A stretch of DNA of 42,570 nt from a virus (IMGVR_UViG_2687453563_000006:1-42570); one strand, 5' to 3'. Numbered from the stretch's first letter, positions 23,412 to 28,931 are shown. The notes: a model not told the origin generated them from the sequence alone. Numbers and translations are program-made.

Positions 23412-23942
23412 TCACACCATTCCGGGCAAATACATTTGCACTTCATTTGCCGCTCTCTCACGTGCAACATGAAGCAATCTTTTTCGCCCACCAACGCCCC
23501 ACTTAGCCATTTGGCTTGCGCACTGGCTTATCGCTTTGGTTTCAGTATTGATGATGTGATCGATTCTATTCAGACGGGACATTGCGCCAACGCCGAGACG
23601 GACAACCGTTTTGAAAACTTCATAAACTTCGATTTCAAATTCCGGCTTAATCCATGCTGCATATCTGATTGCCAGAAGTTCAACACCCCACACACCTGGT
23701 TCTGCACCACCTTTGATTATTTTAAGTGGCTGAATTTGTTCCAAAGTGCTTTTTTGCACTTTGGCCTCCAGTGCTTTTATGAAGCGTTTTATCTGCGCGC
23801 TACGCAAAAACTGGCTTGGGCGCTGTTGCTCTGTAGCCTCTCCATTTGCAACTGCTGCTGCATGGAGATCGTTTAAGTTGTAGCGTCCATCCTCATCAAC
23901 ACGAACGGACACACCATTGACAATAACTGTTGGGTACTTCAT
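23412..23942 (-). CDS. KilA-N domain protein (moron between lysis and packaging)
   Basis: N-terminal NGVSVRVDEDGRYNLNDLH motif; flanked by non-coding DNA on both sides. Confidence 0.6.
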   Translation of the reverse strand: MKYPTVIVNGVSVRVDEDGRYNLNDLHAAAVANGEATEQQRPSQFLRSAQIKRFIKALEAKVQKSTLEQIQPLKIIKGGAEPGVWGVELLAIRYAAWIKPEFEIEVYEVFKTVVRLGVGAMSRLNRIDHIINTETKAISQCASQMAKWGVGGRKRLLHVARERAANEVQMYLPGMV

Positions 23943-24087: not shown

Positions 24088-24112
24088 ATAAAAAAGCCCC
24101 GCATCGCGAGGC
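24088..24112 (-). terminator. Intrinsic terminator after lysis cassette
   Basis: GCCUCGC-GAU-GCGGGGC hairpin followed by U6. Confidence 0.6.
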
Positions 24113-24144
24113 TCATTAAATGGACTTTGTGATTTGCAAAAAAA

Positions 24145-24606
24145 TTATTTCAGGCACTGAGCCCTGATGTACTCCTGCAGGTAGTTAACCTGCGCGGTTA
24201 TCCTGTCTATTCCACTTCGGAGACGGTAATAATTGAGTTCAGCATCTGCTGTAAGTCTTGGGCTTTCTCCATCGCCCATGCTGCTGGCTCCGGTCGTTGA
24301 CTTTGCACAGGTGGCGGAGACTTGCAGGCGCTTACGACCAGCAGAAACATCAGCACGGAGACTTTCGATAGTGGCGTTAGCATCAGCAAGCTCCTTTGTA
24401 TATCTGGCATCGAGTTCTGCTACGTCACGTTGACGCTTCTGCATATCAGAGATCGTCGCCATAGCCGAATCTAATGCCATAGCGTTTTCATCGCGCTGTT
24501 TTTTGTATTCAATGGCTTTATTGTGGTAATGATTAGCTGACCAGACAAGACCACCAGCAATACAAGCAATAAACGTTAAAATGAGCGCCCAATAACTCGT
24601 CTTCAT
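24145..24606 (-). CDS. Rz-like i-spanin
   Basis: 153 aa with N-terminal TM and coiled coil; follows endolysin. Confidence 0.75.
   Translation of the reverse strand: MKTSYWALILTFIACIAGGLVWSANHYHNKAIEYKKQRDENAMALDSAMATISDMQKRQRDVAELDARYTKELADANATIESLRADVSAGRKRLQVSATCAKSTTGASSMGDGESPRLTADAELNYYRLRSGIDRITAQVNYLQEYIRAQCLK
24207..24410 (-). CDS. Rz1-like o-spanin lipoprotein embedded in Rz (+1 frame)
   Basis: Signal peptide with lipobox VVSAC then Pro-rich KSPPPVQSQRPEP; true start probably internal (MLTPL...). Confidence 0.65.
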   Translation of the reverse strand: MPDIQRSLLMLTPLSKVSVLMFLLVVSACKSPPPVQSQRPEPAAWAMEKAQDLQQMLNSIITVSEVE

Positions 24607-25217
24607 ACCAGCAGCGCCGCCCGCGCCTTGTTGTATCGAATCTTACGATCCTCAATACCGTTCAGACCGCCGTTAATGATGCGCGTAACACGATTAATAT
24701 CGGCACCGTAGACCATGCAGCCTTTAGATGTGTAGAACCATGCAGCTGAGCGCGCGGCCTGTAGATCCTGCTCCAGTTGTTCAGGTGAAGTCACCAGATC
24801 TAACTTCAGCGCCGCGCCACAGATGCGATAATTATGGAGGCCAGTGATTTGAATTAATCCTCTACCGCGATATTTCCAGCCATCACCGGGTGCTTTGTTA
24901 CCCAGCCGGTTGCTATACACAAGATTGGCAATAGCATCCTGACGAGCTGCATGTCCGGATGTTCTGCCAAGGGCATCAGCCTGCTGCTGTGTGATCCTCT
25001 TTCCGAACGTCGCCACAAGCGCAGATGGTGTGTAGTTAAAATTTTCAACTACGGCGCTAAACCCCATCGACTCATGGCCTACCTGAGCAATAAACATTGC
25101 CTGATCCGCTGGTGCTGTAATGCCGAATTCCTTCATCGCCGCATCAATGTGCGGAAACCAGCGCGCAGCCAGCCCGGCGCTAATACCAGCCGCCTTTTGA
25201 AATAATTGTTGGTTCAT
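24603..25217 (-). CDS. Endolysin (GH19 chitinase-like lysozyme)
   Basis: 204 aa; position after holin-like genes. Confidence 0.75.
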   Translation of the reverse strand: MNQQLFQKAAGISAGLAARWFPHIDAAMKEFGITAPADQAMFIAQVGHESMGFSAVVENFNYTPSALVATFGKRITQQQADALGRTSGHAARQDAIANLVYSNRLGNKAPGDGWKYRGRGLIQITGLHNYRICGAALKLDLVTSPEQLEQDLQAARSAAWFYTSKGCMVYGADINRVTRIINGGLNGIEDRKIRYNKARAALLV

Positions 25218-25498
25218 TAGTGCCTCAGATGATCAACCAGACGTGCAACGTTGCCTCTTACGGCCACCAGCACGGAAAGAAAAATAGTGTTCGCCACGAT
25301 AATGGGCCATGAGGAATGGGGATAAATCCCACAGAGATAGGCCAACGGAACAGCACTGTATGTAACAGTAATCAGCCAGGCTAAACGTGAAACCCAAGGA
25401 CGATGCCGCGAATCACCACGACGATAAAACATCAGAGTAATAACAACACAAGCACATAACAGCGCATTTATAGTTGCTGTCGGGTCATTTAGCTCCAC
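25217..25498 (-). CDS. Membrane protein (holin/antiholin-like)
   Basis: 93 aa, hydrophobic helices. Confidence 0.5.
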   Translation of the reverse strand: MELNDPTATINALLCACVVITLMFYRRGDSRHRPWVSRLAWLITVTYSAVPLAYLCGIYPHSSWPIIVANTIFLSVLVAVRGNVARLVDHLRH

Positions 25499-25871
25499 CT
25501 GAACCTCCCCGGCGCGTTATGAGCGCCACCAGCGAGCCGATATCCTGATTATTCAGGAACGTCAGGATTTTAACGGCTAAAGCAGAGACGATTACGGCAC
25601 CAATAGCATCCAGAGGTTTATCACTGTATCCGGTCAAGTTCGCCAGCTTGGAGCCAACCAACCCAGAGCAAAGAATCCCGGCAATATATGACACGATAAA
25701 ATATGCCAGTCGGCGCGATGCACTCAGATCTGCTGCTGTTGCTATGTAGAATACAGCCCCTGCAAATGCGCCAAATACAACGCCGTAATCAGTTCCGGTC
25801 AGCAGTCCATAAACACTGGCCCCCGTCAGGGCACCACCAGCCAGCCCAGTACCGGAAATCGGATCGGACAT
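25485..25871 (-). CDS. Putative holin
   Basis: 128 aa Gly/Ala-rich multi-TM protein at start of lysis cassette. Confidence 0.55.
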   Translation of the reverse strand: MSDPISGTGLAGGALTGASVYGLLTGTDYGVVFGAFAGAVFYIATAADLSASRRLAYFIVSYIAGILCSGLVGSKLANLTGYSDKPLDAIGAVIVSALAVKILTFLNNQDIGSLVALITRRGGSGGAK

Positions 25872-25950: not shown

Positions 25951-26208
25951 TCAAACACTACCCTGTTGATGATTTCTCAGAAGCGAACTTGACTCCCAAG
26001 GGAAACTCAACTTTCCGTTAAAACCACCAGCAGACATTCGTTCAATTTCCACAGAAATATCACTGAGCCGTTCTTCAAGCTCTGCTTTTTCTTTTACCAG
26101 ACGGTTATAGCGGCTTAGATGAAGCTTTTGCTGCTCCAGCCAGTCTTCAAGCTGTTCAACAGTCATACCAGGGTTAAAAAAATATGGCTGCTGCTTTTCG
26201 CCCTGCAT
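25951..26208 (-). CDS. Hypothetical protein, first gene of late operon (86 aa)
   Basis: ATG with ggagg SD just downstream of tR'; track ORF extends upstream through the terminator. Confidence 0.5.
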   Translation of the reverse strand: MQGEKQQPYFFNPGMTVEQLEDWLEQQKLHLSRYNRLVKEKAELEERLSDISVEIERMSAGGFNGKLSFPWESSSLLRNHQQGSV

Positions 26209-26221
26209 TATTGACCTCCAG

Positions 26222-26248
26222 AAAAGCAAAAACCCCGCCGAAGCGAGG
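26222..26248 (-). terminator. tR'-like intrinsic terminator of the late leader RNA
   Basis: CCUCGC-UUCG-GCGGGG hairpin plus UUUUUGCUUUU, about 110 nt downstream of Q. Confidence 0.7.
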
Positions 26249-26277
26249 TTTGTTATGATTTCGTTAACGGCAGACAT

Positions 26278-26358: not shown

Positions 26359-27111
26359 TTATCTCGTCACTTTTCTTAATTGCGCCTCAGCATATGCTTC
26401 TTCCTGCCAGCACTTTGTCACCAGTTTATCAATGACATCTGCATATCCTTTGTACCACTGATAATCCGTCAGATCCGGTACCAGCTTCTGGACATGATGC
26501 CGCGCCAGTGTGGTTGGTAAACGGCTAAACCGGTTGCCATTGCAACGCCCACAAATCTTATAAACAGGCACACCATGAAGCCGGGTTCTTTTTTCATCCA
26601 GGACAATACCTTTACCCTTACACCCTCTGCACGCTGTGCTGACTTCTCCCTTACCATGGCAATGCTGACATAGTTCCTTCACCCACTCTTCCTTGATAAC
26701 AGATTCCCCGCTTCTGGAGTGTTTCACCACTTCGCGCAATACATTATGAAATCCAGTACCAGCACAATGCTCACAGCGAGCCTTACTTGCCGCAGACCTG
26801 GAATAATCAGCAAAGGCAAAATTCACAAGGTAATGGATGATCTGTAACCGGGTTTCTTCACTCAATTTGTTCAATGTCGGGTTATCCAGTGCCATCGCGT
26901 AATTGAGCAGACCTTCAATCGCAAACTGAGGATCCTGAACACCAACTTTTGCCAGAAATAAGGCAAACCCAAGCGGTGCTTTCGACTGCACCATCCCCTG
27001 CGCAGCCATCACATCCGTAATCGTTAAACCACTCGAGCCTGTCGCCGGTGCCTCATCGCTCAATTTGGGAGATTTTGGGGAGTAATATTTTGGTAAGGCT
27101 TCAAGGTTCAT
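26359..27111 (-). CDS. Late antiterminator Q-like protein
   Basis: 250 aa with four CxxC zinc-finger pairs; position before pR'/tR' and lysis. Confidence 0.65.
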   Translation of the reverse strand: MNLEALPKYYSPKSPKLSDEAPATGSSGLTITDVMAAQGMVQSKAPLGFALFLAKVGVQDPQFAIEGLLNYAMALDNPTLNKLSEETRLQIIHYLVNFAFADYSRSAASKARCEHCAGTGFHNVLREVVKHSRSGESVIKEEWVKELCQHCHGKGEVSTACRGCKGKGIVLDEKRTRLHGVPVYKICGRCNGNRFSRLPTTLARHHVQKLVPDLTDYQWYKGYADVIDKLVTKCWQEEAYAEAQLRKVTR

Positions 27112-28121: not shown

Positions 28122-28931
28122 TCAATGAACGGTATCGAGCAGCTTTAACAGCTCAGGGAATCGGGATTCGAAGAAATGCGGCTGCGTCTCGCGCGGATTT
28201 GCGGGACTGGTGATGTTCTTGCCGAACATGCAGCCTTTCGCTGTCAGCGACCAGAATTTTTTGATGTTGTTAATCGCAGTGCGGCTGTATCGTTCACGTT
28301 GTTCAACGATCCCCAGCTTCGCCATCTGGTGATATGCCTGATTAGCTGTCAGGCGGATACCATACTGCTTCAGCAGTGCACTCAATGATAGCGTGGGGCG
28401 GCTTGAGCCATCAGGCGCGTCAGCAGGAGCATCAATGGCATAGCGCGGTGCCAGATTCGGTAAGCCAACAGCCTCCTGGAGTTTCTGACAGGCACCAAGC
28501 ACTGAAGAGTTAGACAGGTTTAACTCCCGGCGCATAAAGTCCAGCAGAATCACTCCAGCCTGCATCTTGTCAGCAGCCTGTCCGGATAATTTTTCCGGTG
28601 CGCTGGTTACCATGTCGAAAGTACGGATCACCTTCAGATGGAATGACGGGCTGATCCACATTGCATAGGCATACACCAGTTCTTTGCAGACATACGTCCC
28701 CTGGTTATTTCCGCCATTAATGACGCTAACTGGTTGATTTTGTTCCAGAGGCGGAATTCCACCCTCGGTGAAAAGTTGTTCAATCAATTCACAGGTTTGC
28801 TTATTGGAGAGCCAGTATTTCGGGCGGTTTTTTTGTTCTCCCCCGGCTGCCCTATGCAGATCGTTCAGGCTGTAACGACCATAAGCATCACGACGAACTT
28901 CAATACCATCAATGACCATCAGATTATTCAT
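28122..28931 (-). CDS. KilA-N domain protein (antirepressor-like)
   Basis: N-terminal IDGIEVRRDAYGRYSLNDLH. Confidence 0.6.
   Translation of the reverse strand: MNNLMVIDGIEVRRDAYGRYSLNDLHRAAGGEQKNRPKYWLSNKQTCELIEQLFTEGGIPPLEQNQPVSVINGGNNQGTYVCKELVYAYAMWISPSFHLKVIRTFDMVTSAPEKLSGQAADKMQAGVILLDFMRRELNLSNSSVLGACQKLQEAVGLPNLAPRYAIDAPADAPDGSSRPTLSLSALLKQYGIRLTANQAYHQMAKLGIVEQRERYSRTAINNIKKFWSLTAKGCMFGKNITSPANPRETQPHFFESRFPELLKLLDTVH

Follow-up and report, generated by a model that had tools for sequence, protein, structure and literature searches.

An Rz1-type lipoprotein gene predicted within the +1 frame of the Rz gene in the lysis cassette of an Escherichia coli prophage

The DNA that we analysed, a stretch of 42,570 nucleotides from the viral record IMGVR_UViG_2687453563_000006 (hereafter the window), very probably carries, as part of an E. 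coli prophage, a lambdoid-style lysis cassette in whose spanin pair an Rz-type inner-membrane spanin (i-spanin) gene contains, wholly inside it and in its +1 frame, the gene for an Rz1-type outer-membrane spanin (o-spanin). The elements of the locus that bear on this prediction are the following.

24145..24606, minus strand: Rz-type i-spanin gene, 153 aa (from the list of ORFs, PF03245 and PHROG 13)
24524..24550, minus strand: recombination junction inside the 5′ end of Rz, coding for LVWSANHYH (the overlap of two match ranges in a three-way alignment)
24391..24396, minus strand: Shine–Dalgarno sequence AAGGAG of Rz1, with a 7-nt spacer to the ATG at 24383
24207..24383, minus strand: Rz1-type o-spanin gene, embedded in Rz in its +1 frame, precursor of 58 aa (PF06085 and PHROG 3198)

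The product of the enclosing gene is predicted to be an Rz-family inner-membrane spanin subunit, and this assignment is supported by profile matches as well as by the layout of the protein. The translation of Rz starts MKTSYWALILTFIACIAGGLVWS, with the start codon overlapping the stop codon of the endolysin gene (ATGA). In a Pfam profile search the protein matched PF03245 (Bacteriophage Rz lysis protein) at 136.5 bits, the cut-off being 25.4, and it matched PHROG 13, which is named ‘Rz-like spanin’ and belongs to the category ‘lysis’, with E = 4.8e-68. It is 49% identical to λ Rz over 147 aa, an alignment that spans the regions defined as CC1 and CC2 (PMC5295617). The best hydrophobic 19-mer places an N-terminal transmembrane segment at approximately residues 6–24, and the periplasmic domain contains Cys100 and Cys151. 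The RefSeq entry for the protein is WP_000858463.1 (‘lysis protein’), and a PDB sequence search with Rz returned no match at E ≤ 0.1, leaving no solved homologue for comparison.

A sequence-only reading of this DNA had assigned positions 24145–24606 to the embedded gene; that interval is in fact the enclosing Rz gene, with Rz1 itself occupying 24207–24383 and everything lying on the minus strand. The same reading’s placement of a +1-frame ORF inside the i-spanin gene was borne out. In particular, the ORF that opens at the first ATG extends over 24207–24410 (minus strand; 67 aa, MPDIQRSLLMLTPLSKVSVLMFLLVVSACKSPPPVQSQRPEPAAWAMEKAQDLQQMLNSIITVSEVE), terminates at a TAG at 24207–24209 (minus strand), lies wholly inside Rz and, (24606-24410) mod 3 being 1, is in the +1 frame of that gene. 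When counted from the ATG at 24383, Rz1 corresponds to nt 224–400 of the 462-nt Rz gene, that is, to 0.48–0.87 of its length. Embedded o-spanin genes typically start at 0.4–0.5 and end at 0.9–1 of the i-spanin length (PMC6139136), and the position found here is near that typical range, as expected of the embedded architecture.

The embedded frame matched PF06085 (Lipoprotein Rz1 precursor) at 72.6 bits (gathering score 27.9; E = 2.1e-20), with the match taking in profile positions 1–41 of 41, and it matched PHROG 3198 (category ‘lysis’, named ‘Rz-like spanin’) with E = 4.6e-26; its identity to λ Rz1 is 41%. These matches, those of the enclosing gene to PF03245 and the existence of homologues that are 93–98% identical uphold the nested two-component spanin arrangement that had been proposed from the sequence alone.

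The precursor, which begins MLTPLSKVSVLMFLLVVSAC, contains a predicted signal peptide of 19 residues, MLTPLSKVSVLMFLLVVSA, followed by Cys20. The n-region, MLTPLSK, includes Lys7 and is followed by VSVLMFLLVV and then by VSA immediately before the Cys; residues 8–19 have a mean Kyte–Doolittle value of 2.76. The lipobox, VSAC, spans residues 17–20 and was identified with a regular expression that applies the consensus rule only, [LVI][ASTVI][GAS]C (PMC6139136). The earlier description of a signal peptide with the lipobox VVSAC is therefore sound as far as the motif goes, LLVVSAC being present and VSAC fitting the consensus. In a rule-based test, the charged n-region, hydrophobic h-region and lipobox of Rz1 are those of a substrate of signal peptidase II. 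The lipoprotein signal is kept whether translation starts at 24383 or at 24410, and its survival at the true start was the point on which the sequence-only reading had made its proposal depend; the start at 24383 gives the 19-residue signal peptide and then Cys20. Residue +2 after the lipobox Cys is Lys and residue +3 is Ser, so that there is no Asp at +2. In sorting by the Lol pathway, lipoproteins that do not carry Asp at +2 go to the outer membrane. Taken as a prediction, the identification of the product of 24207–24383 as an Rz1-family outer-membrane lipoprotein, that is, an o-spanin, is supported.

Mature Rz1 would consist of 39 aa, of which 5 are Pro (13%), with a PPP stretch at mature residues 4–6, and it is without Cys apart from the predicted lipidated Cys20. 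It has the short (approximately 40 aa), proline-containing form of mature peptide looked for in this class. The claim that the mature region is proline-rich stands in that the PPP stretch and the other prolines do follow the Cys, but Rz1 here is less proline-rich than its λ counterpart, in which 10 of the 40 mature residues are Pro (25%), with a penta-proline stretch, and which has in addition a periplasmic Cys29 that forms an intermolecular disulfide (PMC5295617). None of Rz, Rz1, the endolysin and the two holins had a match in an NCBIfam scan, and the lack of a match for Rz1 may be the reason that PGAP leaves it unnamed here.

The true start of Rz1 is probably the ATG at 24383, giving 58 aa, rather than the ATG at 24410. 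We favour it because of the Shine–Dalgarno sequence, the Met that is shared across homologues, the start of the PHROG profile and the presence of the 58-aa form in databases. AAGGAG coincides with the codons for Lys-Glu in the conserved KELADA motif of Rz, and the ATG at 24383 also falls within the codons of that motif. A purine-rich Shine–Dalgarno motif and an ATG are found at the homologous place in epsilon34, HK106, λ, phi80 and VT2-Sakai, and the Met at 24383 is common to these same five phages and a Pseudomonas phage. Position 1 of the PHROG 3198 profile aligns with this Met, and the exact 58-aa sequence is present at NCBI as GAB0791885.1, a ‘hypothetical protein’. Translation from the upstream ATG, which would produce a 67-aa precursor with a 28-residue signal peptide and leave the mature product and its function unchanged, is in our judgement unlikely. 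Although 24410 is the first ATG in the open frame, and rz1 of UAB_Phi20 is annotated from the equivalent codon, no Shine–Dalgarno motif lies upstream of it, the equivalent codon in epsilon34 is ACG (Thr), and Rz1 of λ, phi80 and VT2-Sakai starts at the homologous second ATG. Furthermore, the PHROG 3198 profile begins at the second Met and not at the Met of 24410, and a collection of 15 billion proteins contains the exact 58-aa sequence but not the 67-aa one.

With a start at 24383, the o-spanin has close relatives in well-known phages. Using tblastn with the 58-aa Rz1 against 50,697 phage records we obtained matches in 473, of which 161 were at least 80% identical and the remainder less than 60% identical; among those listed, the records of low identity were mostly Stx-converting phages. 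Over all 58 residues, Rz1 is 93–98% identical to the Rz1 frame inside Rz of P22-like and HK97-like phages, with near-identical copies in the P22-like phages PS3 (gene 15), epsilon34, UAB_Phi20, Phi75 and Sf101 and in the HK97-like phages HK106 and HK633. The frame is annotated as Rz1, lipoprotein precursor or spanin in epsilon34 (66A), Sf101, UAB_Phi20 (rz1, ‘lipoprotein Rz1 precursor’), Stx2a_WGPS6 (‘Rz1 protein’) and phi80.

Kongari et al. (2018) assigned HK97, HK106, HK633, P22, epsilon34, phi80, Sf6, Sf101 and others to the ‘HK97’ embedded o-spanin family (PMC6139136), and, judged by its sequence, the Rz1 described here falls in that family. The VSAC lipobox, the KSPPPVQSQRPEPAAWAMEKAQDLQQMLNSIITVSEVE mature sequence, the embedded position in the +1 frame, the Shine–Dalgarno sequence and the ATG are all the same in the family as here, the proline content of mature Rz1 is identical, and in both Rz1 is without a periplasmic Cys and Rz has two. 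The differences are that our Rz1 has Pro4 instead of Arg4 in the n-region of the signal peptide and that the last three residues of the family members (STG) are missing. The architecture is also that of λ, where Rz likewise has 153 aa and harbours Rz1, again in the +1 frame, at a similar relative position, and Cys100 and Cys151 of Rz here are equivalent to C99 and C152 of the λ protein. We inspected seven homologues (those of HK106, epsilon34, λ, phi80, VT2-Sakai, Flyfo siphovirus Tbat2_3 and Pseudomonas phage UFJF_PfPro). Six of them, with Rz1 identity down to 36%, have an open +1 frame, a lipobox-like motif before a Cys, AAW.M and a C-terminal LN.II..SE; Rz1 of VT2-Sakai, which is outside this comparison, is annotated and begins at the same ATG. 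The lipobox-like motif of Flyfo siphovirus Tbat2_3 is SVGC and lies outside the strict consensus.

The enclosing gene is a recombinant, and its chimeric origin is well supported by DNA alignments. From the endolysin gene through approximately nt 80 of Rz, the DNA is 97.6–98.2% identical to that of Escherichia phage SKA5 and Salmonella phage 118970_sal3, phages in which the holins, the glycoside hydrolase family 19 (GH19) endolysin and the first approximately 80 nt of Rz (the transmembrane segment) match those here. From approximately nt 57 of Rz to past the terminator, the DNA is instead 96.3–96.7% identical to that of HK106 and HK633. The i-spanin of SKA5 has 130 aa and a periplasmic domain unrelated to that of Rz here, and the SKA5 lipoprotein ORF (MMIVLHVLCLLPLLTGC...) runs beyond the i-spanin stop codon, and is thus overlapped rather than embedded. 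The spanin genes here stand behind a GH19 endolysin and a two-holin module, whereas those of λ/P22-type cassettes stand behind a holin and a lysozyme or transglycosylase. The chimeric Rz protein is common, being found on at least 1000 contigs. We give little credence to a more ambitious reading of the locus, according to which it represents a natural domain-swap, joined at VWSANHYH, between an anchor from the SKA5-type overlapped architecture and an HK97-type periplasmic domain with its embedded o-spanin, together with a recurrent short Rz1 allele. If this were true, with the short allele being selectively maintained and altering the behaviour of the spanins (for example, the timing of lysis), the locus would amount to a small natural experiment on spanin modularity.

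The short allele arises from a single codon. Rz1 here ends in SEVE followed by the stop codon (58 aa), whereas Rz1 of HK106, epsilon34, phi80 and most database members ends in SEVESTG (61 aa); the cause is a change of TCG to TAG in the Rz1 frame, which in the Rz frame is a synonymous change of ATC to ATA (Ile). Among IMG/VR contigs, 20 carry the TAG allele and at least 120 the TCG allele, and all 13 of the other named cluster members listed have 61 aa. The TAG allele occurs on at least two backgrounds, namely the Rz N-terminus found here (7 contigs) and P22/epsilon34-type N-termini (13 contigs). By analogy with λ, loss of STG is probably harmless, because λ Rz1 ends at the same alignment column and tolerates truncation to residue 55 of its 60 without a lysis defect (PMC5295617), and a functional consequence of the truncation is unlikely. 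We consider it very unlikely, too, that the gene is a genuine Rz1 homologue that is impaired or decaying, such that the premature TAG and a possibly defective prophage leave a spanin pair that may no longer work. The dominance of the 61-aa form among contigs and named cluster members would fit such decay, as would the IS2 element that adjoins a truncated tail-protein gene in the prophage and the remnants of a truncated recombinase and an S24-peptidase gene. Set against this are not only the end point and tolerance of λ Rz1, but also the presence of the truncated allele on at least two Rz backgrounds, which argues for tolerance, the intactness of all the other lysis genes, and the occurrence of an identical (100%) 2-kb cassette in at least seven E. 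coli genomes.

That the predicted Rz1 frame is a real gene and not a product of chance was assessed with 5000 synonymous-codon shuffles of Rz. An alternative-frame ATG-initiated ORF of at least 58 aa appeared in 37% of the shuffles; the length of the Rz1 ORF by itself is within chance expectation, and we left it out as evidence for this reason. An ORF of lipoprotein-like form (Met followed by 13–28 residues, then a lipobox and no fewer than 20 further residues) arose in 0.5%. The decisive evidence that the frame beats chance is homology, as judged from sequence comparison. Where two Rz codons encode the same amino acid, their third bases agree more often inside the overlap than outside it in 22 of 25 divergent pairs, the pairs being non-independent and the counts small. 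Since the third base of the Rz codon is the second codon position of Rz1, the synonymous-site pattern appears to fit a dual-coding constraint, as weak and supporting evidence only. The notion that the ORF is unexpressed and open by chance only, owing to a composition of Rz that promotes long ORFs in alternative frames, is effectively refuted by homology and deserves next to no weight: the frequency of long ORFs among the shuffles, the long and open antisense frames of Rz and the absence of the ORF from the RefSeq annotation speak for it, but the Pfam Rz1 match, the retention of the frame, of a Cys-containing lipobox-like motif and of the C-terminal motifs as far as the Pseudomonas phage at 36% identity, the conserved Shine–Dalgarno sequence and ATG, the rarity of lipoprotein-like ORFs among the shuffles and the genetic essentiality of the homologous λ gene for lysis with divalent cations present (PMC5295617) all speak against it.

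One of the antisense frames, an ORF of 66 aa with a TTG start at 24233–24433 (plus strand) that is antisense to Rz/Rz1, was considered as a gene and rejected as a shadow ORF because in λ the corresponding frame remains open for just 41 codons. It matched phrog_35444 (unknown function) with E = 3.1e-11 and had no match in Pfam. Flyfo siphovirus Tbat2_3 has a comparable antisense CDS, annotated there as ‘DUF5971’, and ORFs of this type are probably a family of shadow-ORF miscalls. No match was found for the other small ORFs, at 24258–24371 and 24322–24474 on the plus strand and 24471–24569 and 24533–24655 on the minus strand.

How an Rz–Rz1 pair of this kind might act can be proposed from the λ paradigm (PMC5295617, PMC6139136) and from the Young laboratory’s earlier work. 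Rz and Rz1 would be transcribed from a Q-dependent late operon, with Rz1 being translated from its own internal ribosome-binding site. Rz would be anchored in the inner membrane by residues ~6–24 and reach into the periplasm with two coiled-coil segments, forming a coiled-coil homodimer that is covalently linked through Cys100 and/or Cys151. Rz1 would be lipidated on Cys20, cut by signal peptidase II and, as it lacks Asp at +2, routed to the outer membrane. Binding of the C-terminal parts of Rz and Rz1 to one another would then create a complex that bridges the periplasm, with the homodimers locked by intermolecular disulfides. The spanin complex would collapse after holin triggering and removal of the peptidoglycan by the endolysin, fusing the inner and outer membranes as the last step of lysis.

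Disulfides matter to this scheme in that spanin function in λ needs at least one of them, formed by Rz C152 or Rz1 C29 (PMC5295617), and two-component spanins are recognized in part by one or more periplasmic cysteines, in either subunit, from which an intermolecular disulfide can form (PMC6139136). Here the periplasmic cysteines are Cys100 and Cys151 of Rz, with none in mature Rz1 beyond the lipidated one. Because Rz1 is without a periplasmic Cys and Rz keeps both of its own, Rz would presumably be the sole provider of the disulfide, as it is for the other members of the HK97 family.

The predicted spanin genes lie at the downstream end of a cluster of genes on the minus strand, the other members of which are listed in the order of transcription.

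26359..27111, minus strand: antitermination protein (Q-like), upstream of the lysis cassette (annotated in RefSeq as WP_001569329.1)
26230-26251, minus strand: terminator-like hairpin followed by a T-run, located after the antitermination gene and before the first holin gene (terminator scan)
25951-26208, minus strand: 85-aa protein of unknown function, PHROG 3501, after the hairpin at 26230-26251
25485..25871, minus strand: first holin-family gene, 128 aa, Phage_holin_8 (PF16931, 119.4 bits; PHROG 198, holin, E = 5.4e-43)
25217..25498, minus strand: second holin-family gene, 93 aa, Phage_holin_3_7, putative 3-TMD (PF05449, 71.2 bits; PHROG 217, holin, E = 6.3e-32)
24603..25217, minus strand: endolysin, glycoside hydrolase family 19, 204 aa (PF00182, 31.5 bits; PHROG 181, endolysin, E = 2.7e-87)
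24094..24114, minus strand: strong intrinsic terminator, a hairpin of 9 pairs (6 of them G-C) and a following T-run, 30 nt past the Rz stop codon (terminator scan)

The sequence-only reading had spoken of a full lysis cassette, and we concur: two holin-family genes (PF16931 and PF05449), the GH19 endolysin gene, Rz/Rz1 and a terminator are all present. That the cassette is complete, with holins, endolysin and Rz/Rz1 clustered on the minus strand, the antitermination gene upstream and the terminator downstream, is supported by these sequence-based assignments. The terminator at 24094..24114 marks the end of the cassette, and in HK106 the homologous sequence is annotated as a rho-independent terminator. 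Neighbouring genes of the cassette share 14, 1 and 4 nt, an arrangement suggestive of translational coupling. The 14-nt overlap is that between the PF16931 and PF05449 genes (each a putative holin, one of them possibly an antiholin), ahead of the endolysin gene. Against PDB 4OK7, an endolysin of SPN1S type, the endolysin aligned from residue 4 with E = 1.6e-78. We considered whether it might be a signal-anchor-release (SAR) endolysin and rejected this, as its N-terminus has no hydrophobic stretch of sufficient length and the alignment to 4OK7 starts at residue 4. The hairpin at 26230–26251 (minus strand) is reminiscent of λ tR′ downstream of pR′.

A 2-kb query spanning the cassette was 100% identical to the chromosome of E. 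coli APEC O78 (NC_020163.1) and to several other E. coli. As placed from the cassette, the window corresponds to positions 627846–670415 of NC_020163.1 in reverse orientation and is a prophage of E. coli APEC O78. The prophage is flanked by yjjG and prfC and has head genes of HK97 type together with a contractile tail; its tail-fibre functions are probably defective, and, given the IS2 element and the gene remnants, its genes may no longer be under selection.

NC_020163.1 in RefSeq and HK106 in GenBank (JQ086369.1) both have Rz annotated and Rz1 missing. Kongari et al. (2018) found that 196 of 528 o-spanins had no CDS and described a systematic omission of embedded o-spanin genes by gene callers (PMC6139136), and the missing annotation here matches that documented bias. 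On sequence grounds the feature is already known, being near-identical to catalogued members of an experimentally characterised kind, and it is nothing new in kind. Its value is for annotation only, in that adding Rz1 completes the prophage lysis cassette; it opens no new biological question.

Several other features of the window concern the prophage at large. Scans of the whole window for tRNA genes and Rfam families found nothing. The IS2 element lies at ~2619–3847 and adjoins the truncated tail-protein gene at ~3910–4371 (coordinates converted from RefSeq), and on its other side are the remnants of a truncated recombinase/invertase gene (~2167–2511) and an S24-peptidase gene (~1992–2165). 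The prophage has two genes for proteins with a KilA-N domain, at 23412–23942 and 28122–28931 (both minus strand). One KilA-N gene (176 aa; PF04383; PHROG 129, ‘transcriptional regulator’) is situated between the lysis terminator and the HNH endonuclease/terminase genes.
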